A stretch of DNA of 64,000 nucleotides from a virus (lineage: Duplodnaviria; Caudoviricetes), in the IMG/VR virus record IMGVR_UViG_3300028797_000100, positions 32,001-96,000 of that record, one strand, 5' to 3'. Positions 12,607 to 40,400 of the stretch are shown one piece after another. The translations under genes and the position numbers were made by a program. How positions within the stretch are numbered: the stretch's first letter is position 1; each line of letters begins with the position of its first letter. The notes beneath the pieces are model-generated. The model ran no database searches, had not been told where the DNA came from, and saw only the letters and a list, made by a program, of their open reading frames with translations.

Positions 12607-12647
12607 ATTGGGCCCCATTACGGGGCCCAATAATATTTTTTTTTTTT
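12607..12647. terminator. Terminator between convergent genes
   Basis: ATTGGGCCCC-ATTAC-GGGGCCCAAT followed by a long T run. Confidence 0.8.
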
Positions 12648-15582
12648 ATTCTGTTGCTGCAGTTGGTACATACATAAGTCTCGCGCCGAAGTATTGTGAA
12701 GATGTTGCTGAAGTATTGCCAGCGCCGATATCGAATATACCACAATAGTCACCATCGACCCAGCTACCGCCACTTGGATAAATACGCCATCCACCATCAG
12801 ATGTACCGTAATAGTCACCTATTACTTCTGTTGGATCTTGTGTTGATACTGTCTCGGATGGTAAGAACGTATAGTCATTGTTTGCATCATAACCGAATGC
12901 TGTGATGTAACCAATGACTGATGACATCGTGAAACCTATCTGTGAATATCCTGTAGCAGTATCATCTTCAAATGAGTACGAATCACATATGTATGGAACA
13001 TGTTCATTGATATTAATACCATCGATCCAGTTCCAGATGTTACCCCAGAGATTCTCAATACCTCTCCAGAATACTGGAATTGTCGAGTTTGATTTATTAC
13101 CAGCTGTCGATTTACCGTCGTTAGTAGTTGAATTGGTTGTTTTAATCGAACCAGATACAACACCCCTACCGATCGCAACTTGCGAGTTGAAACCATACTC
13201 AACAGCTATCAACATCTGAATTGCTGATAACTGCTTGAAACCAGCGTTATACCAACCAGTACCTCTGTTAGTTGCCATTATTCTAGCTGTAGCACGAGTG
13301 AGTGAAGATGTCGGTGTATAGCCACCAGCAGATGATAACTTGTAATCAGTCGTGTTGTATGACGTATTATAAGTACCAGAAGAATTCTGACCAACTGCTG
13401 CAAATGAACCATACAGGAAATAGTCTACTTCATTTCCATTTACGTCAATGAACGCGGGATGTACTTTGAAGGTATTATCTACCTTTGTAGCAGCAATTTC
13501 CCATTTAGCTTTGCGGATGTGAACACCATCAAGGGTTATAGGTGTCATCTTATAATAGAACTTAGGTATGTACGACATAACCTGTCCTTTTGTACCGTTG
13601 TTATTGTAACCGCTTTCATCAGCTCTCTTTGTTATTGTACCATCATCATTTACATTGCAACGAATGATGCTATTATAAACAGACAAAGCTTGAGGATTAC
13701 CAACTTGCTCCATGGTATTGTTTGAGAAGTCCATAACAATAGATACTATTATTTGAGTACCAACTGCATATACTTCGTTACCATTTCCAACAGTTATCGG
13801 GTTCTGTCCAGCAACTGCATCGTCGAGTGAAGCATACCATGTATATGTATAAGAACCATTATCGGATGAACTTGGAAGTGTTTCACCATTTACAAATGTT
13901 CCATAAGCATAATATGTATTTATTGTTGGATCTGGATAATAGGACTTAGGTTTCATATAAGCGTCATATGACGCAAATGGAACAAGTATCTGTGTCCATG
14001 ACTGTGTAAATATTGAATTATTATTTCCAAGAGTTGGTGGTATTAATGGTTTGAATCTTATGATGTCTATGAAACCGCAACTACCAGTGGCACCACCAGC
14101 AATTGATGTGACTGTGCTTGGTATAGTCATTACTGCCAATGAAGAACATGTATCACATATATTGGAAGGAATAGTAGTTATTCCTTCAGGCGGTTCGAAA
14201 GTTGCCAACGCTTTGCATCCACTATACATAGATGAACCAAGACTGACAACAGATTCCGGTAGACAAGTTTCAGCCAATGAAATACAGTTAGTGAACGCGT
14301 TGCTACCAAAACTAATATTAGATGGGAACTCTACAGACATCAATGACGAGCATCCATTAAATGCATTATTTCCTACCGATGTAACGGTATTAGGAACATC
14401 AACATCCATAAGATTTACACAATCACTGAACATGCTAGCCTGGATTGCAGTGAGACCTGTCGGTAGTTTAATGCTTCTCAGACTCTTGCATGCGTTGAAA
14501 AATGCTGTACCGCTGAGAGAAGTTATACCAACACCAAGGATGGCTTCTTTCAAACTATCGCAGCTATTGAAAATGCTATTTCCGGTTGTTGTTAATGATC
14601 CAGGAATAACAACAGTTTCCAAAGAATAACAGCTGTCAAATGCATAGCTTCCAAAAGTTGTAATTGAATTTGGAAGACTGACAACTTTGAGATTGTAGTT
14701 TTTACGTATAGAATATGTGCCACACGTCGTACATCCATTAGGTATAATTATTGATGACAAATCGGTTTCTGAAAATGCATAATCGGATATTCCTGTGATT
14801 GCATTATGAAGCGTTATAGTTTTTAATGAATGACACATCAAAAATGAATATGAACCGATCTCTGTGAAGTCGGTTCCAACTTCGACATGTGTAACAGCAT
14901 CACTGTAAACCACGTCAGGAGAACTTCCTGAAGCACTACCGTTTGAGATTATGTTGGATATATATGGCGTTGCACTTTGCAACTTCACAGTTCCAGATGT
15001 AACTTTAACTGAAATTACATATTTACCAGGTGCTGAAAAGAAATGTCTTTCACCAACATAAGCAGCTGCACTAGTGTTAGATAACTCCGAATGTGCGGAA
15101 CCATCACCCCAGTCAACATCAACTGTTGAGTTCTTATAAAGATACAACTTCAATGTTGGGTTGAGTCTACCTTCTTTGAGAGTAATGTAGAAACGGGTTC
15201 TTCCATCATCAGTAGCATACATCTGACCGATGTCAAGTCTACCATTGTTAGCAACGAATGTTTTGGCATCCGAAAGACTCCAGTTCCAACCCTGTGATGT
15301 TAAACCGGTATGAGTTGGATTAGCTGGTAATGATTCGAGAGCAGCAAACTCCTGTGTTGTGTATGATGTAATCAGAGTTCCATCATAATCATAGAATCTT
15401 ACAGGTTTTACATCTCCTGGATCTGGTATACTATTAATTCCACCAGGAAAATCCATCAAACCTGGATTGTTAGGGAGTGTGCCGCCTTTACCAGCTATAG
15501 CTGTAGCAATACTATCTACCGCGAGGGCAATATCTGCAGCATTGTCTTGTAATGTTTGTAAATTTGTAGGCAAATCAGCCAT
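12646..15582 (-). CDS. BspA-type LRR virion protein with a C-terminal C-type-lectin/Mtd-like domain
   Basis: 978 aa. VDWGDGS (PKD-like), many LRR_5 units (IPxxxTxIGxxAFxxCxSL), C-terminal WRGIENLWGNIWNWIDG...GGSW...FGARL. Confidence 0.8.
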   Translation of the reverse strand: MADLPTNLQTLQDNAADIALAVDSIATAIAGKGGTLPNNPGLMDFPGGINSIPDPGDVKPVRFYDYDGTLITSYTTQEFAALESLPANPTHTGLTSQGWNWSLSDAKTFVANNGRLDIGQMYATDDGRTRFYITLKEGRLNPTLKLYLYKNSTVDVDWGDGSAHSELSNTSAAAYVGERHFFSAPGKYVISVKVTSGTVKLQSATPYISNIISNGSASGSSPDVVYSDAVTHVEVGTDFTEIGSYSFLMCHSLKTITLHNAITGISDYAFSETDLSSIIIPNGCTTCGTYSIRKNYNLKVVSLPNSITTFGSYAFDSCYSLETVVIPGSLTTTGNSIFNSCDSLKEAILGVGITSLSGTAFFNACKSLRSIKLPTGLTAIQASMFSDCVNLMDVDVPNTVTSVGNNAFNGCSSLMSVEFPSNISFGSNAFTNCISLAETCLPESVVSLGSSMYSGCKALATFEPPEGITTIPSNICDTCSSLAVMTIPSTVTSIAGGATGSCGFIDIIRFKPLIPPTLGNNNSIFTQSWTQILVPFASYDAYMKPKSYYPDPTINTYYAYGTFVNGETLPSSSDNGSYTYTWYASLDDAVAGQNPITVGNGNEVYAVGTQIIVSIVMDFSNNTMEQVGNPQALSVYNSIIRCNVNDDGTITKRADESGYNNNGTKGQVMSYIPKFYYKMTPITLDGVHIRKAKWEIAATKVDNTFKVHPAFIDVNGNEVDYFLYGSFAAVGQNSSGTYNTSYNTTDYKLSSAGGYTPTSSLTRATARIMATNRGTGWYNAGFKQLSAIQMLIAVEYGFNSQVAIGRGVVSGSIKTTNSTTNDGKSTAGNKSNSTIPVFWRGIENLWGNIWNWIDGININEHVPYICDSYSFEDDTATGYSQIGFTMSSVIGYITAFGYDANNDYTFLPSETVSTQDPTEVIGDYYGTSDGGWRIYPSGGSWVDGDYCGIFDIGAGNTSATSSQYFGARLMYVPTAATE

Positions 15583-33700: not shown

Positions 33701-34763
33701 TTGATTCTACTACTAATGACCCTTCAGGCGTTCTCAACTTCTCATACTTATCATCATATACCAACTTATTCTCCATGATGTCATAATAATTGACAGCTGG
33801 GAATATGTTAGGTACTTCATGGAAGTATTTGAGTAAGTAGATGTCAACATTGACAGTCTTCATGTTGCCATTCGTAATCATGTTCATTGTATGATCTTGA
33901 ACATCATTGATTACGAAACCTGATGCATTGAAATAACCGAAGTTTGGTACAGTGTTGATGCTCTTATCATATGAAGTGTTATGAATGTTCACGAGACACT
34001 TCATACCATTTACTTCTTCCTTCTTGATATCAATATCAGTATAAGGGATGAAGCCTTTGGTAATATAAGATGTATTAATGGAACGGGTATACATCTTACA
34101 TCTGTCAAGCTTATACACAATGAAGTCAACTTCGTAATTTGGTTTCCAACCTATCTTGAATTTGAAACCATGATCATCTATTGCAACATAAGCATCGTTA
34201 GAAATGAAACCATTTGCAGAGCATACGATACAGAAATCAAGCACATCAGCAATTCTTGAATTATTGAATTCACTAATGCTGAGATATTTGTCATTTTCTG
34301 TTATATGCATTTCATGAATTCTTTGACGAATGAATTCATCTCTATGACCGAAATGCAACTGATTGAACGGAGCATCGATAATCTTATAATGTGTAAAACT
34401 CTCAGTTGCAACGTTCTTTTTATCAGCTAATGTCGTATGGAATATAACAGCATGTGTGTTTACCAGGTTCCTCGACATTGTATTTCTTAAAGAAGTACGA
34501 TATGCTTCACTGAGTGATTTATCGAGATCTTCAAATGTATAATTAGATCTACCCATGAGATCCAATAACATATCAAAACCTTTATTGTTACCTTGAACAA
34601 TGTCTGGTTGTTCGGCAATCAATTCCGATTCCATATCAACGAGCTTCTTAAATCTTTCAGTGAGATTATAATTCTTCATATCAATGAAAGATTCTTCTCT
34701 TCCTCGTTTACCGGTACGATATTGGTGTTGCCTGAAGAACCAGTTATTGAAATTCATTTTCAA
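27795..34763 (-). CDS. Very large virion structural protein (2322 aa; tail/baseplate candidate)
   Basis: Uninterrupted ORF, RBS GAAAGGAA, late-type promoter upstream; C-terminal PLSRDRYEFWVNGRY...LSPTSIQL; exact function not recognised. Confidence 0.6.
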   Translation of the reverse strand: MKMNFNNWFFRQHQYRTGKRGREESFIDMKNYNLTERFKKLVDMESELIAEQPDIVQGNNKGFDMLLDLMGRSNYTFEDLDKSLSEAYRTSLRNTMSRNLVNTHAVIFHTTLADKKNVATESFTHYKIIDAPFNQLHFGHRDEFIRQRIHEMHITENDKYLSISEFNNSRIADVLDFCIVCSANGFISNDAYVAIDDHGFKFKIGWKPNYEVDFIVYKLDRCKMYTRSINTSYITKGFIPYTDIDIKKEEVNGMKCLVNIHNTSYDKSINTVPNFGYFNASGFVINDVQDHTMNMITNGNMKTVNVDIYLLKYFHEVPNIFPAVNYYDIMENKLVYDDKYEKLRTPEGSLVVESTASSTNDLEICTPPITIDRDTSYTFDTITACLSLYKNLMKYKPLMNNIGRFTMGSTPDMVDYLNNIRPKLYEMFVDMSKMTQDYYRGAIITSLVPTAKINKFNKLADNISRFYYDVTHAEDIQTHTFDELYGNNFEITVTEICEPFLDDKLLPFSRAINIQTNFYEKEDASRFNRPIAEQSFITLKYSQEYNSWIFDYPKIRHFHGIGNTFYINEGLTGNEIFKFFVLYTDTEDPADPFIEHFDLDTVVDFDLFYDEMCKYNGCIRYWDAESRLAKISKMLYRNYSDETIIHVLSKILKRKIDGESIISVYPSDINYEDSNKTSDNVIEYTEDSDRGPFSINFLFYTLSLLNNNVDKLQAYFYRDLTKRKFSNRYADIDISSALSNVRYPISYSQYSISPARFPTDASLPAGRSALAYYGLPLLMNGSGIQHLYDPYRFVLNVYDPDIKFPLIDADGIHDEYYVQYSDITVYSGSVVSYKDTVEFCRLLTTYLDAIYDYISELQTNYKTTYNMSSIADRATEAINIIKEKILDLDYNGNIANITVDGLTTEDIINMIRQNAFVNELNSLKELCASIIYLPNETVTKSFISFVTARDDSLLGILKYVYYNFGFDNDVKERVRRLYIHLKKINTPMNPYQYKKWLHGIDLHILDTLDEHTAYNPNNTYSDQVFHDLYLKLVDYITAVDPVLDLLDSRIKNLSTAFYNSYINPYSRFCDKIYNDIIFDIFTYNTIDVPNLTSTTYNTKPFLLAIKIPDGTPHTLAPYGPSIAGDHHLFFKLNTSYDGTNYTISGLSSICEYIFFRGTDLTGLTAYVLSDAGTSIGTISDCSMSFIRAGSTADKGGEVNQIINTETTVLDFEDHHESFEVNNDGKVLNELPAPMNYEMLLGNHYTQLDHESEYILNPVTWNPGSVDRVFIENQTINRMSIADHGHKECSHMYFKPCQILHPSESVNGKYFEGETIYIKALNGSYVFPAIVTSVDHSMNKGFMEAEVDQWNATWLNVTNSTTVSTLLSGPIECEVIDDSIRNFIDEYSDTSLNSYYEPIWDTTVMDVDHINCYTLPGDPLTVTSDAPYVYSRLKWMFNEDIDNRFIDEESKTSRFIYVGEGFVANDQDTLQMNMINHNFNVKSLPEQYPVLKFEPNEHLIWRKEVETFTSIRDQALAAVRDDDIELSKMDFRLKNDPTLDPNTHRYEYTRFIIRMAEVRDRKNVNKKLVERMNQMIYQLEGKTTWFNVISNDAALIYIDNGSADKFSPTFIPKIGDLLYTDDLEVYLYDWEHKLWIDPSTYSVSYNVENGVKIDECDDYTTDRVMTSITITPSNGFSYSNKILVYFAYDKSDVFDDVLMNTNTCEVKFKPLLVLDKEDAHTDPYYDIRIRKQFDGYEKYSTTSTDAGEITIKRIRRSGKYTDAPVFRLCDVTVEYGGITHTYHDINKFKVKSPFTGLTTQRQFHQHQYSTRITAPIDSFTENEHVKLICISNNDLSMYDGNISSIMFEGVTSYSDSAQVITITDSTLPNYTEGQFVCTVFKDDMYDSCGGVVVVTVTIDSEDIYDDWVTVPADYALYREIPEEFMLIMNDAPQNTDVNVTLEIKYAKDVPDTIMEDNSDVHNPFEYYYDSRNQTRLPISDVKRNAHDRRLVIDQTQNEDVKVVKSTYISICRYSLAKIPQNGVIDMTGYLPTPLSRDRYEFWVNGRYVTDPKDLLILSPTSIQLRNMKSLKNFECIELVDDVDSDNDLMHKGNVYIDINGNTYSNFKLAVLSNTNINKQQVAYIFNANNHEKINDYYRNITDDPNNYDLEEDILSTVTFDTSNTDFNKLTNIPTINGISLFHPKLAGLGIAEIDNIDIIKLYDKIWRREAATDPLFFNTHRMESDVTNKAAGLVIHVKQIDEEHWHGLDIDTTGMYAIHVTGPSKRYFSLYVSRAEDGAIDDISNTKKIIPFMSTSVYILLDQSYHGMWLHSTYPNTDPIHII

Positions 34764-34808
34764 AATTGATCATTCCTTTCTATAATATGATCATATTCAT
34801 CGTGAACA

Positions 34809-34823
34809 CTTACCTTGGCGTTT
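34809..34823 (-). promoter_or_regulatory. Putative late promoter AAAC-N7-TAAG
   Basis: AAACGCCAAGGTAAG. Confidence 0.6.
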
Positions 34824-34869
34824 TGTTTTTATACAAAAAACTATTTCTATTTTTCTTAATCCTGAGATA

Positions 34870-34879
34870 TATATTTTTA
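34870..34879 (+). promoter_or_regulatory. Putative early promoter of the RAMP gene
   Basis: TATATTTTTA, a 1-mismatch copy of the TATATTATTA motif. Confidence 0.45.
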
Positions 34880-34942
34880 TTATGTTAAAGAGAATTTAAA
34901 ATCATTCACTTTAACAAAATTTAATCAAAGGAGGCCATAATC

Positions 34943-35839
34943 ATGGCACGTATTAAGAAAACTGCTGAGACAGAGGCAGGTAAAACAACACTGTCAGCAA
35001 CCGGAAAGAAGAACTCTTATGATGTAACAATGTGGTTTATTCAGCCACTCTTGGGTTCAGCTCCTTCTGACCCTAACATCTATAAAACCTTTATTGCGTC
35101 AAAGGCTCCTGATGCTCCTACCAGGGAAGAGGAACTTATGACGACAACGGTTGAAAACGTTGCTTCAAGAGGTACAAACGTTTTCCTCAGAAGAAGCAAA
35201 ACCGGTAATCCCACAATCGCTCAGCACGCTCTCAAGGGCTTCTTAAAAGAAAGAGGTACTCAGGAGAACAGAGTTATTGATGGTATATCGATTACCAATC
35301 ATAAGACAAAGATTGTTGGTAACGTTGTTATCAAGCCGACATTCATCGATCTTAACATCCCAGAGGAATTAATCAGAGATACAACTGAAGAGACCTTCAA
35401 GAAAGAAGGATTTGGTTATAGCTCTGCTATTAGATTCCCTGCAGAGCCTGGCAGCAGATTCAGAAGAATCATGCTCCCAACATGTGATCGTCCCCTTCAG
35501 GCAGAAACTCCTCAGGGAAAGATAACATCAATTGCATCTAGTGAGATTGCACCTGCAGGCACATCTATCAATTTCCAGATGGAAGTAGATCAGCTGGCTC
35601 CAACTAAGAAGGATCCTGGTCAGATTGATGAGAGATTAATATCACTCTTTATGACAGGACACCGTCATGGCACAGGTCAGTGGAGAGGCTCTGGAGAATA
35701 TGGAGCTTTCGTTACTGAAGTACGTGATGAAGAAGGAAAGCTCATTTATGAGAACACCACTGAAGTTCTCGGTTGTAATTCCGATGACGCAGACTTCTAT
35801 CAGAAGCTCTGCGACTATATCGATGACAATTGCCTCTAA
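34943..35839 (+). CDS. Stand-alone Cas7/RAMP-fold protein (Vipr-like effector of a putative RNA-guided system)
   Basis: RBS AAGGAGG. RAMP hallmarks in order: YDVTMWFIQPLLGSAP (beta1), GNPTIAQHALKGFLKE (cf. GxPxIPGSSLKGxLR), SEIAPAGTSINFQMEV, and Gly-rich loop GHRHGTGQWRGSGEYGAF. Confidence 0.8.
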   Translation: MARIKKTAETEAGKTTLSATGKKNSYDVTMWFIQPLLGSAPSDPNIYKTFIASKAPDAPTREEELMTTTVENVASRGTNVFLRRSKTGNPTIAQHALKGFLKERGTQENRVIDGISITNHKTKIVGNVVIKPTFIDLNIPEELIRDTTEETFKKEGFGYSSAIRFPAEPGSRFRRIMLPTCDRPLQAETPQGKITSIASSEIAPAGTSINFQMEVDQLAPTKKDPGQIDERLISLFMTGHRHGTGQWRGSGEYGAFVTEVRDEEGKLIYENTTEVLGCNSDDADFYQKLCDYIDDNCL

Positions 35840-35845
35840 TAATAT

Positions 35846-35880
35846 GGGCGGCCCAGTGCCGCCCTTTACTTTAATTTTTT
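35846..35880 (+). terminator. Hairpin/terminator after the RAMP gene
   Basis: GGGCGGC-CCAGT-GCCGCCC followed by a T-rich tail. Confidence 0.6.
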
Positions 35881-35898
35881 GATAGGAGGTAATTGAAG

Positions 35899-36366
35899 AT
35901 GAAAGATGATAGTAAATTTGGTATAGAATTCACTACCAAGGCAAATGAGAGTTTAGAAACAGCTATAGATATACTCTCAAATTTATCACAGTCCGCTATA
36001 ATGGATTTAAGAGATGAGAACCCCAGGTTCAATAAGAACGTTGAGGAACTCACTCAATTAATTTCCGGCAGTCCGGACAAGTTATGGGCACAACATCCGG
36101 AGTATTCATTCATCACATGTTCGAAGAATGGTGACATCAAGTTATCACCTAATGCGAATTGTGAGATAAGATACAATGACAATGTACCATTCTTGCATTA
36201 TCTGAGATCCCGCAAACCTGATGTGTTAGGAGCAATCATAATACTTCAGTGTTTTGTTGAATGCCCCGGCTCTTTAAGTGAATATACTGTTCACTATAAA
36301 GATGGTAATCCAACAAATTTAAAGTTTGCCAATCTTGGATGGGCAAGAAAGTACGTCGGAAGATAA
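35899..36366 (+). CDS. Hypothetical protein between the RAMP gene and the array
   Basis: ATG 35899 lies 9 nt after GGAGG; 155 aa; no recognised family. Confidence 0.7.
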   Translation: MKDDSKFGIEFTTKANESLETAIDILSNLSQSAIMDLRDENPRFNKNVEELTQLISGSPDKLWAQHPEYSFITCSKNGDIKLSPNANCEIRYNDNVPFLHYLRSRKPDVLGAIIILQCFVECPGSLSEYTVHYKDGNPTNLKFANLGWARKYVGR

Positions 36367-36371
36367 GCTCT

Positions 36372-36424
36372 CGTGGAGCTCTAAACCACGCGTTGTCTCC
36401 AACTTATAAAGTTGATGTGAGACA
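36372..36424 (+). other. Structured leader of the array
   Basis: Hairpins CGTGG..CCACG (36372-36390) and TGTCTC/CAACTT-ATA-AAGTTG/GAGACA (36394-36424). Confidence 0.6.
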
Positions 36425-37450
36425 TAAAGTTTAGTTTTGGTTTTGTCTGGTGAAGTTCAGGTAAGGTGGAGTCGTGTAAGATGCCGATTCGTGGCGGTCT
36501 TGTTTGGTTCTATGTGATTTAGGCTAGTGAGGGTTTCGTGATCTGTTACTTTGGATATTCTGTGAGGGTGCGGTGCGGTTACGTCGTGTCCGGTAGGGTT
36601 TGTTCCTGTTTCGTTTTGTGCTGGTGACGCGGGGAGATGTTTGGAAGTGTGACGTAGCGGTTTTGCATTATACCGAAGACGCAGTTATGAATATTAATGT
36701 GTAGGCATAGTTCTAGTAGGTCATGTAATGTGTAATAACGCTGAGGCAGTGTCTTGCAGGGGCCGGTCAGGTAAGGTAGCGTATCACAGTGTACTGGTGT
36801 AGTTTTGTGTGCTGGGATCTGGAATTGTGCTGGTTATGTATCGTGAAATGGAGCTGGGTTCTTTTAGGTTGCGTCATGGTCCGGCATCGTGCGGTGCGGA
36901 AGAGTACTGCGCAGTTTTGTGTGGTTGCGGTGGTGTTATCTCCGGTATGACGATGTTTGGTCTGGCCGGGTGGCGGTACAGCATTGTATTGTACGGGTCA
37001 GTGGTGGGCTGTGCCGAGCTGTGTAGGTTTGGTAAGGCTCGGATCGGCATGATGTCGTCATGGTACTGTATGGTTAGGTTTCAGCATTGTTTTGGTGCAG
37101 CACAGTACGGTGAGATGTAGTTTCGTCTAGGTTGAGTGAGGGATGGATGTGTAATGGCTCGTTGAGTATCGGTGCAGCTAGGTAACGTGTTGAACTGATG
37201 CGTATTGTTTAGTACGGGTTGGGCTAGGTCAGGATCAGAGAGGTCAGGTTAGGTTCTGGTGATGTGTCGTTTGGTATGGCAATGTTTCGCATAGCAACGG
37301 TGTTGCTCGGTACAGTACCGTCACATAGTGCCTGGTTCAGGTAAGGCGAAGTTGGGCTTTGAAGTGCGAAGTGTTGGTGGAGCCTGGTAGGGTCTAATCA
37401 TGTCAAGTGATGGTAGGGGCCGGTCAGGTAACATAGCGATCGCAGTGTAC
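36421..37450 (+). ncRNA. Periodic non-coding array (NNNGY)n punctuated by NNNGGY; putative guide-RNA array
   Basis: About 200 five-nt units, e.g. from 37261: gatgt gtcgt ttggt atggc aatgt ttcgc atagc aacggt gttgc tcggt acagt accgt. G/T-rich against an AT-rich genome; no credible ORF; ends at a terminator. Confidence 0.8.
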
Positions 37451-37461
37451 CAAAAGAATAT

Positions 37462-37494
37462 TCCGGGGCATAATGCCCCGGATATTTTTTTTTT
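37462..37494. terminator. Terminator closing the array and the convergent RNAP gene
   Basis: TCCGGGGCA-TAA-TGCCCCGGA plus T run. Confidence 0.85.
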
Positions 37495-40400
37495 ATTTTC
37501 CTTCCCAAATTTGACGCATCTTACGTTTAAGATTTACTAAAACCTTATTACCAGATGCGGTAACTACAAGTGAAGGTATCATACGTTTGAGGATACCTGA
37601 GTTAGATACAAATAATGATATCTCTTCATTAGGATCTGATTCAGCATATGGTTCAAGTCCTTCTGGAATAACTTCCGAAAGAACCTGTTTTGATGCACCA
37701 TACATTGCAAGCTTATCACCAACTGATGCTTCGTCTTCATGTTCGATGTATATTTCTATGAGTACATCACATGTTCTACCCTTGATAGTTGTACCCTTCA
37801 AAGGAGCAGTTGGTAATGTATATAATGTATCCAGTTTGTATACTGAATCTGTTTTGTCATACTTATCAAGAATCTTCTTTCTCTGTATATTCTTCTTGAA
37901 GTAATCATCGAGAAGTTTATACAATGATGGAGAAAGTTTATCCATGCTCTTGGTAGTGTACATTCTTACATCAAATACTCTACCAGGATTCTTTGCACGT
38001 ACAACTCTCTTCGCATTATCCAAAACAGAATTACTTTCTTTATTCTGGAATGCCTTAAGGAAGTTATCAACAGATTTATCACCAGTATCACCAATACCGA
38101 ATACGATTAATGGATCACCGATTTCAACTTCATCTCCAACCTTAACAACTGACTCGATATCATCAAGTGCTTCGATTGGAACTGATTGCATCATTGAAAG
38201 TGATGTACCAAGTTTCTTGGACATCTTATGTGTTATCAATCCAGCGTCTTCATATGTTGAGTAGATGTTTGCGAATACACATTTAGCCAGAGGACCAACG
38301 TTCATTCTTACAACACCATCGATACCCTTAGTGAAGAACTTTTCATGATATGCGATAACATCACCCTTCTTGAATTTGTCATTTACTTCAAGATTAGTAA
38401 CGAGATGGTTATCAACATAGAAACCAGAACCGGAGTTGAATGATGGTTTATGTGCAAGGTTTACAGCCTTCTTCTTTCCTGACTTGAATTGAAGAATCAT
38501 GTAATCTTCATTCTTGTCTATAACAGAACCATCCTCGGGAGCAACATAAGAGAATTCTTCAGTAAGGTTTGAAGAAACAATCTCATCAACACCATTTGAA
38601 ATCAATACAGGCTCGGCTGCAATAGTAGGAACGATATGAGATGTCTGAGATGTTGCAATAGCAGTTCTGATGGCATCGTCACGTGTAACTGTACCAGGAG
38701 TAAGCAACTCGGAGAACGATGCTAACTGAAGATCATTGAAGTCTGTTTCAGGACCAGCTGTGGATGTATAACCACGAACTGATTCTATCTTAGGATCTGC
38801 AACCAACTGACGATTGATACCTACATTCGCATTGTTTGGAGATGACAGAGCCATCTTACCAATCATTGTGTTTTCATAGTTACGTTTGTCAACTGTATAT
38901 GCACGATCATCGTTAACTCCTTTGAATCCTTTCTTGGTGATGTTTTCACGCATATGAAGTTCTACCATAGGATTCAATGCAGACATAGGTTCAACATTAG
39001 GAACTGCCAAGAGTTCATTGATAACTTCATTTGGATTGAATGCTATTGCATTTCCTCTAGCCTTAGAACCAACGTTGTTGTTGTATTTCGATATAGCAAA
39101 TGCCAATCTATAATGTATGATAGCAGGAATGATCTCAGATGATCTGATACGATATAAAGAAGCATTATTCTCTGATGTATGGTTATTGTCTGCCAACAGA
39201 TTTGATGCATATATCAGCATACCAGCAATGTCGTTTGGTATATGATAATGGTCACATACATCCGCTGTTATAGGATCAACAAAGAACTTGTAATATGTGA
39301 TGAATGTCGTAAGCTGTGAATACTGTTTGAAGAATAGATTATTGTATATATCAACATAGATGGAGTTCGAATTCATTATAGGAGTTTCAAACTCTGCAAA
39401 GTTGTAGTTCTTTGTGTTGATACGATAGAAACCATTGAACAGTAATTGGTTTGGAACATTGTTCTCAATTGCGAGGATCTTGTCCTTGAAAGGTAATGTG
39501 AAGAAATGACTATCGTCGAAGTTTGATGCCACGAACTTATACTGAACACCACTCTTCTTGATGAGGGATGATATACCTTCCCATGCCGCAATAGTAACAC
39601 CAAGTGGTACAAGTACACCGATCTTGATTTGTGTATACATTGCAAGCTTACCAGGTTTCTGTTTCTTGTATTCCTGTTGGAGTTCAGGTGGTAAACTCTC
39701 AAGAATCAAATCAGTAATAGTATGACCATCACGTGTTAAACCTGTTTCAGTATTAACAACGATTGGTACTTGGTCATGCATACCACAACAGAACTCATTC
39801 TGTTGTACAGTAACAAAACCAAACTTTTTCTGACACTGAACTCTGTTGAAGTTTATCTCAAGAGCATTGGCTCTGTTGTTGAAATAAACCCACTTGCGAG
39901 CATACTCATCATACTCGATCGTAGATACAAAACGTGAGTTAGTATTAGATGAGTTACCAACACGGACAAACTTATTCTTACCAGTCTCAGCATCAGTCAA
40001 CTTATTGATTATCTTGATAACCATTGACAAGTCTACCAATGAACGAGTATCATATCTTTGACATGTAATCTTGTTATAGTTACTGGTAAGCATAACAGTT
40101 TTCTTGTTTATCTTTAATATCGGAATAGGGAAGTCTTGTTTACCGATATTATACCAGATACCGTTGTTGTAGAATCTACCATTGACGATCTTTGGTATAC
40201 GGATATTAATGATAGACTGACGGTCATTGCTCTTGTTCTTCAATGTAACCTTCCAGTTATTTACCAAACTCAATGGAGTTGACGCATCAGTTACATCTAC
40301 ATTTGTAACATAGAATCCGTCTGGTAATTTGGAGAAGTTCATGAATGTTGCAACGATATCTCTATCCAACAACTTATCTTCATATTCCTTAGCTATACGA

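Follow-up and report, generated by a model that had tools for sequence, protein, structure and literature searches.

Hexamer junctions in a pentamer array beside a vipr-like gene: a probable guide RNA locus of a VIPR system in a gut jumbo phage

VIPR systems and related RAMP assemblies

The Viral Interference Programmable Repeat (VIPR) system is a CRISPR-related DNA silencer reported in 2026 preprints (bioRxiv 10.64898/2026.04.26.720920; structures in bioRxiv 10.64898/2026.04.26.720927). In SUSP1, one Vipr protomer is found per pentamer of the guide RNA, with GGY sequestered and the two variable N bases exposed (bioRxiv 10.64898/2026.04.26.720920; 10.64898/2026.04.26.720927). The NN bases read double-stranded DNA, and one base is skipped per unit (bioRxiv 10.64898/2026.04.26.720920). 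Residues D177, W178 and R179 of the SUSP1 Vipr G-loop contact G1, G2 and Y3 of the repeat, and the Vipr filament has its own periodicity of 5–6 subunits (bioRxiv 10.64898/2026.04.26.720927). Seven types of VIPR have been distinguished, along with the alternative repeats NNNGG, YNNNG and NNNNG (bioRxiv 10.64898/2026.04.26.720920). Array architectures include, according to the legend of fig. S18, ‘staggered arrays with overlapping vrRNAs’; in the preprint’s passages on this architecture, staggered vrRNAs are tail-less and follow one another directly, each beginning where its predecessor ends, with an offset of 1 nt (bioRxiv 10.64898/2026.04.26.720920). Small-RNA sequencing confirmed the two other architectures and not the staggered one (bioRxiv 10.64898/2026.04.26.720920).

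The characterised example is the type II system of Escherichia phage SUSP1 (Vipr YP_009199429.1, vap1 and four vrRNAs), in which the vrRNAs are separate units of ~100 nt, each with 9–16 strict GGY-NN repeats and an invariant pseudoknot tail of ~40 nt. The locus described here shares with it the G-loop GxG-D/Q-W-R, the vipr–vap operon, the GGY/NN grammar and guides made of pentamer runs. It differs from SUSP1 in that there is no tail for each guide and the first G is strict at junctions only. The class 1 CRISPR-Cas backbone (Cas7/Csm3 on crRNA) has the same RAMP fold, fixed nucleotides per protomer and periodic base flipping by the thumb. However, its period is 6 nt and it has a repeat handle, whereas the present locus has a 5-nt period, lacks direct repeats and cas genes, and would use a one-base register shift as the guide boundary.

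The vipr–vap operon and its relatives

The window analysed here is a stretch of 64,000 nucleotides from a 163.7-kb IMG/VR contig, estimated to be 61% complete, of a phage distantly related to jumbo phages with a multisubunit RNA polymerase (RNAP). The cassette of interest is flanked by two large minus-strand genes, one of which encodes a 1426-aa RNA polymerase beta-like protein. Its features are the following.

34757–34786 (+): promoter-like site upstream of the operon, sigma-70-like by a 10/12 match to the consensus only
34943–35839 (+): vipr, encoding a 298-aa Cas7-like RAMP protein as judged by AF2, Foldseek and hhalign
35846–35864 (+): GC-rich terminator-like hairpin between vipr and vap, with 7 GC pairs
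35899–36366 (+): vap, encoding an accessory protein of 155 aa whose C-terminal domain is HNH_3-like as judged by PHROG, Pfam and AF2/Foldseek
36386–36432 (+): structured 5' leader hairpin of the array, with a GTCTC...GAGAC outer stem and a variable inner stem
36436–37460 (+): putative vrRNA array, ~200 NNxGT units in ~24–25 segments by HMM parse
36436–37414 (+): 25 hexamer junctions NNN-GGY, 24 of them with an HMM insertion
37409–37460 (+): terminal segment, with counterparts at the 3' ends of related arrays and an internal duplicate at 36758–36794
37462–37492 (+): intrinsic terminator, a bidirectional hairpin with a 9-bp stem (7 GC pairs) and a T-run

The 298-aa protein matches neither Pfam nor PHROG. 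Its homologues number 26, several of them on contigs of 200–290 kb, and an AF2 model that draws on the alignment of these proteins (pLDDT 81) has as top Foldseek PDB matches Cas7-11 and the Csm3/Cas7 subunits of type III and type VII complexes (probability 1.0, E about 1e-6). Five residues are invariant in the family (G239, G245, Q246, R248 and G254) and W247 is near-invariant. The family has an invariant glycine-rich loop (GTGQWRGSGEYG) whose GTGQWR aligns with the C-terminal GVGDWR of SUSP1 Vipr (hhalign of the family profile, E=1.7e-4, probability 49%). By its modelled structure and this alignment, the protein is a Vipr homologue with a Cas7-like RAMP fold. The change from D to Q in the G-loop may accompany the relaxed first G of this clade’s pentamers.

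The product of vap matches the phrog_959 HNH endonuclease (1e-6), and Pfam HNH_3 is found weakly in three of seven orthologues. Its AF2 model (pLDDT 84) is closest to I-HmuI in Foldseek (probability 1.0, E 0.02). Residues 128–148 keep an HNH_3-like motif, ...D-x-(D/N)-x-x-N-(L/I)-...-N-L-x-W, and a Tyr conserved within the HNH_3-matching stretch appears to stand where the first His of an HNH motif is usual. With Tyr in place of this His, Vap may bind DNA without cutting it. The vap of SUSP1 has a DNA-binding fold, in contrast to the HNH-like protein encoded here.

The leader hairpin at 36386–36432 has a minimum free energy of -18.8 kcal/mol (z=-2.55), and an alignment of six leaders contains compensatory changes in 6 of its 12 pairs. 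The arrangement AAACCACGCGTTGTCTCC-[variable hairpin]-GACGTGAGACGTAAAGT stands ahead of all arrays in the subclade (e.g. L003:6452-6506, L008:6524-6576 and L009:6454-6500). The GTCTC/GAGAC stem also resembles a hairpin in the 3' tail of the SUSP1 vrRNA (L042:27860-27900, minus strand), a likeness that could be a coincidence. At the other end of the array, the terminal segment at 37409–37460 has 96% identity with the last part of the L003 array. In L006, L008 and L010, matches of 84–94% to it lie where the array meets the terminator. The segment may be a guide common to these phages or a handle at the 3' terminus.

Six relatives with Vipr proteins 51–76% identical to the one in the window all carry vipr and vap followed by an array of 0.9–2.3 kb with the same grammar. 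Synteny of vipr, vap and array holds in every relative whose DNA or gene list was examined, and vap follows vipr in all relatives with listed gene calls. More distantly, three GenBank gut-phage contigs encode Vipr homologues of ~220 aa that are 29–35% identical, and their arrays consist of NNxG(C/A) pentamers with NNNGG(C/A/T) hexamers every 26–46 nt. A peptide-pattern search for Vipr in IMG/VR gave no match. Two more arrays with the NNxGT/hexamer grammar are found in the same genome, at G000:C1:17160-18010 and G000:C1:155300-156500 (L038 and L039). Both open with the leader hairpin seen in the window, and a terminator closes the first. By tblastn, vipr and vap each have one copy in the 164-kb record; thus, these two extra arrays are solo.

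A query with the RNAP beta protein identified two related jumbo phages, G003 (IMGVR_UViG_3300028886_000060) and G004, with RNAP beta 68% identical. Neither has vipr, and the array is also absent at the G003 locus, where a different 310-aa ORF and no pentamer array lie between the RNAP beta gene and a giant gene (G003 12640-14700). The VIPR cassette thus has the character of an accessory island.

The features of VIPR that are found at the locus are a minimal RAMP protein (RRM core, glycine-rich loop and thumb), vipr and vap without CRISPR repeats or cas genes, and tandem pentamers. The feature of type II VIPR that is absent is a recurrent tail between segments, there being one leader hairpin and one conserved terminal segment per array. 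CRISPR-Cas features are likewise absent, with no direct repeats and no cas1/cas2 among the neighbours; ORF maps and family scans found no other cas genes nearby and neither an integrase-like nor a Cas1-like gene in the operon. With staggered VIPR arrays, as far as the preprint’s figure legend describes them, the locus shares a lone RAMP protein, vap, a long intergenic pentamer tract in which fixed G/Y letters alternate with variable ones, and residence in a phage. It also has +1 slips at ~25 junctions and module edges at these junctions, which are equated with the preprint’s figure by way of its legend. The identity of the junction motif itself (GY/NNN/GGT, with a doubled G) is likewise matched to staggered arrays through the legend. 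The present clade differs from the described VIPR in the size of Vipr (298–334 aa compared with ~195 aa), in arrays of 0.8–2.3 kb with one genome that has three, two of them solo, and in its origin from metagenomes without NCBI protein records.

Pentamer units and hexamer junctions

On the plus strand, positions 36428–37460 are rich in G (0.35) and T (0.32) and poor in C (0.14), compared with 0.20, 0.31 and 0.19 in the window. There is no convincing ORF at these positions, which are non-coding. The autocorrelation of G is +0.32 at lag 5, with side peaks at lags 11, 16, 21 and 26 that grow, indicating that the 5-nt phase drifts by +1. An Rfam scan of 34500–38000 returned only noise: the array belongs to no Rfam family and CRISPR-DR families did not rise above noise. 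The predicted RNA fold of the array is unexceptional (z=-1.5), blastn of the array against GenBank phages found no match, and the region has no direct-repeat array.

The unit was derived with a cyclic five-state HMM with free insertions and deletions and ten random starts. In the window array it is N-N-x-G-T, with G at 84–86% and T at 69–72%. The two N positions have an entropy of ~1.95 bits, compared with 0.83 bits at the G. The first G of the pentamers is degenerate, which corresponds to the related consensus ‘YNNNG’ of the preprint (bioRxiv 10.64898/2026.04.26.720920). The same parse contains 24–25 one-base insertions and 2–3 deletions. When insertions and deletions are penalised equally and the third position is flattened, there remain 24 insertions and 2 deletions. 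Simulated arrays without indels gave 0 and 0 in this model, and those with equal indel rates gave ~10 insertions and ~9 deletions, so that the method itself does not favour insertions.

An original prediction, made from the letters of the sequence, held that the +1 slips occur almost only at six-base units ending in GGT or GGC, and named an HMM fit as its check. The fit places insertions inside 24 of the 25 hexamers that had been listed, whose starts are as follows.

36436, 36457, 36493, 36529, 36564, 36620, 36656, 36701, 36742, 36793, 36829, 36875, 36926 (first 13, +)
36972, 37023, 37059, 37091, 37127, 37168, 37214, 37255, 37296, 37337, 37373, 37409 (last 12, +)

The exception is the hexamer at 36564, which fits GT-NNN-GGT and needs a compensating 4-mer before it. 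The fit has one extra slip, at 37079. Two slips fall in 37075–37091, and the placement is ambiguous there and at 36737/36742. As had been claimed, segment lengths are mostly of the form 5n+1 (21 of 24 spacings) and each hexamer in the window is mostly followed by 6–9 pentamers. Over nine arrays (the window array, the two other arrays of the genome and those of the six relatives), the number of pentamers between hexamers has a median of 6 and an interquartile range of 5–7, so that the guides would be shorter than those of SUSP1. The characteristic spacing of hexamers is ~31 nt in L005 and 36–41 nt in the window and in L006. Some intervals are long, 17 to 30 units, and guide boundaries therefore need not all be hexamers.

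The slips are not random with respect to GGY. In the window, 88% of hexamers and 25% of pentamers end in GGY, and the figures over the nine arrays are 78% and 24%. A model-free test on four arrays gave the same contrast: the base just before the second GT is G in 119 of 126 occurrences of GT-N4-GT, compared with 106 of 295 occurrences of GT-N3-GT (Fisher p=2.7e-32). The six-base unit is a distinct motif, GY-NNN-GGT, and no trivial echo of the pentamer consensus. A logo of 296 hexamers reads G 94%, T 85% / NNN / G 96%, G 82%, T 91% / NNx / G 92%, T 76%. The scaffold units that flank the junction are, on either side, better conserved than the average unit of the array; for instance, 80% of the pentamers that precede a hexamer end in GT, compared with 52% of other pentamers. 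Composition and block edges are ambiguous as to which of the three N bases of the hexamer is the extra one.

Ordinary satellite decay had been considered a poor explanation for indels placed at a conserved GGY, and the nine arrays bear this out: with symmetric penalties they contain 306 insertions and 16 deletions, that is, insertions are 19 times as frequent. The punctuation is selected and is not a product of decay, because of this indel bias, the GT-N4-GT test, the conservation of the junction scaffold and the persistence of the motif in Vipr clades that are only 29–35% identical.

Shared cassettes, guide boundaries and competing readings

Blocks of 78–96% identity are common to arrays of different phages, and some of them are reordered. 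One of them spans four segments and 158 nt (37020–37177) and is 81% identical to L006:7120-7286, whereas in that search the vipr genes of the two phages match at only ~66% of nucleotides; identity between their Vipr proteins is ~51–53%. Such a match suggests that guide cassettes have been exchanged horizontally or that strong selection on particular guides is shared. Block boundaries fall within 5 nt of a hexamer centre in 47 of 117 cases, compared with 28.5 +/- 5.5 when positions are shifted circularly at random (p about 0.001); the BLAST endpoints on which this test is based are not fully independent, and a conserved GGT may shift them by a few bases. When shared blocks are aligned without gaps and with their flanks, sequence agreement sets in at a hexamer and breaks off just past the GGT of a later one, most clearly at 36875–36931, 37296–37378 and 37255–37301. 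The original prediction had pointed to gain or loss of whole segments among related phages as informative, and the comparison indeed returned shared blocks that start and end at hexamers in shuffled order. These edges support the reading that one segment corresponds to one guide.

Inside the shared blocks, the two NN positions are conserved at 0.89 and 0.86 and position x at 0.79, which is consistent with a gapped code. The NN usage of the array fits codon positions 1–2 of the phage’s genes (log-likelihood -5516) much better than the other frames (-5648 and -5676), an indirect agreement with the published wobble-skipping rule. Searches for individual targets stayed at chance level. Exact NNx searches with four guides found chance-level matches only and no natural target, and in mismatch-tolerant NNx scans of the phage’s own genome, the relatives’ loci, G001, G003 and G004, skipping one base did no better than skipping 0, 2 or 3. 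A self-match of 14/14 at G000:14955-14974 was discarded, as it has no extension and is at chance level. The guide at 36875 has 7 exact matches of mixed GC in the collection, a number at chance level. The guides at 36972 and G000:155587 match GC-rich contigs only, and the 10-unit guide at 36737 has 0 viral matches and 2 in Cohaesibacter. A shared sense or antisense orientation within segments was not significant (p=0.13). One of the 7 matches of the 9-unit guide at 36875, with agreement at 18/18 NN positions, lies in a tape-measure gene (L019:7117-7142 in G001, IMGVR_UViG_3300021254_000033, an AT-rich phage with GC 0.34). The skipped bases of this match are at wobble positions, it has no extension past either hexamer, and no other guide matches that contig.

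The pentamer tract is probably the vrRNA array of a VIPR system in a human-gut jumbo phage, with the hexamers parsing it into ~24 abutting guides. The assignment to VIPR rests on the RAMP fold, the G-loop homology to SUSP1 Vipr, the synteny of vipr, vap and array, and the published YNNNG repeats and staggered arrays. In the proposed operon, vipr and vap would be followed by the structured leader, ~1 kb of NNxGY pentamers and the terminator. As the clade has no tail for each guide, consecutive guides would abut. The junction hexamer GY/NNN/GGT would shift the pentamer register by +1; since strict 5-nt phasing is required within a Vipr filament, one filament would end at the extra base, and the full GGT, the only site with a near-invariant first G, would anchor the next. 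The predicted transcript would thus be read, and probably cut or trimmed, into ~24 guides. The junction may also be viewed as the overlap of two registers, each with its own invariant G, which would explain why the G is doubled and why the preprint’s legend speaks of ‘overlapping’ vrRNAs.

The original prediction is supported in part: its core, ~24 hexamer-delimited, protein-bound guides without direct repeats, fits the Cas7-like RAMP neighbour, the vrRNA grammar and the block edges. Its presentation of the system as new and non-CRISPR does not hold, the class having been published in 2026. To read the hexamer as a guide boundary is essentially the published VIPR logic, in particular that of the ‘staggered’ architecture as the legend describes it. 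A stronger version is put forward tentatively, as a possibility that we rate below even chances: the doubled-G junction would be a self-sufficient mark, in which one extra base stops and restarts Vipr filaments without a handle, a tail, a ribozyme or a dedicated nuclease, host RNases would do the trimming, and cassettes bounded by junctions would be exchanged between competing jumbo phages.

An unlikely, though not negligible, reading keeps the VIPR guide RNA and takes the hexamers as register corrections or kinks in long continuous filaments (set by helical geometry or by a different skip), so that guides would span several segments. The spacing of hexamers is indeed variable (26–56 nt) and not fixed, shared blocks often hold 2–5 segments, and the published filament has a periodicity of 5–6 subunits. 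However, blocks of a single segment are exchanged and reordered between phages with their edges at hexamers, segments are similar in size to the published guides of 9–16 units or a little below them, and the spacing ignores a helical repeat of 5 or 6 subunits. Exchange of this kind, together with reordering and internal duplication (the 36758/37415 duplicate), would also be expected if the hexamers were scars of array growth, in which the joining of cassettes by recombination or copying leaves an extra G that has no role in RNA processing or filament assembly. This is improbable: conservation at the junction and in the scaffold units on either side exceeds that elsewhere in the array, and clades whose scaffold letters differ still keep the motif, which argues for selection on the RNA and not for a neutral scar; nor does the operon contain an integrase-like or Cas1-like gene.

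The TRAP-binding trp leader has triplet repeats at a spacing of 5–6 nt, and a mean period of 5.10–5.13 nt in the arrays puts two units at ~10.2 nt, with about half a helical turn for each. A DNA-level or RNA-sponge element (e.g. protein-binding DNA or a decoy for TRAP or another G/U-binding protein) is nevertheless very improbable, given the strand-asymmetric composition of an array that is co-directional with vipr–vap and ends in a terminator, its constant linkage to a RAMP protein with the Vipr G-loop, and the published biochemistry of the VIPR grammar. The DNA half-helical-turn periodicity and the TRAP-like decoy were dropped for the stronger RAMP and VIPR evidence, as were G-quadruplex runs and a resemblance to immunoglobulin switch regions.

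The vrRNA reading of the array bears on how VIPR loci can be interpreted. VIPR is very recent, and the guides characterised so far are of the tailed SUSP1 type only. In tail-less arrays, a rule for the start and stop of guides is needed before any target can be predicted. The GY/NNN/GGT junction, which is kept from the jumbo-phage clade to relatives that are ~30% identical and is respected by cassette exchange, provides a practical parsing rule. What the locus adds to the described systems is a junction motif that has been quantified and is conserved in distant Vipr clades, the exchange of cassettes at these junctions and a jumbo phage with three arrays. Three arrays with at least about 70 predicted guides in one gut jumbo phage point to heavy conflict between phages in the gut.
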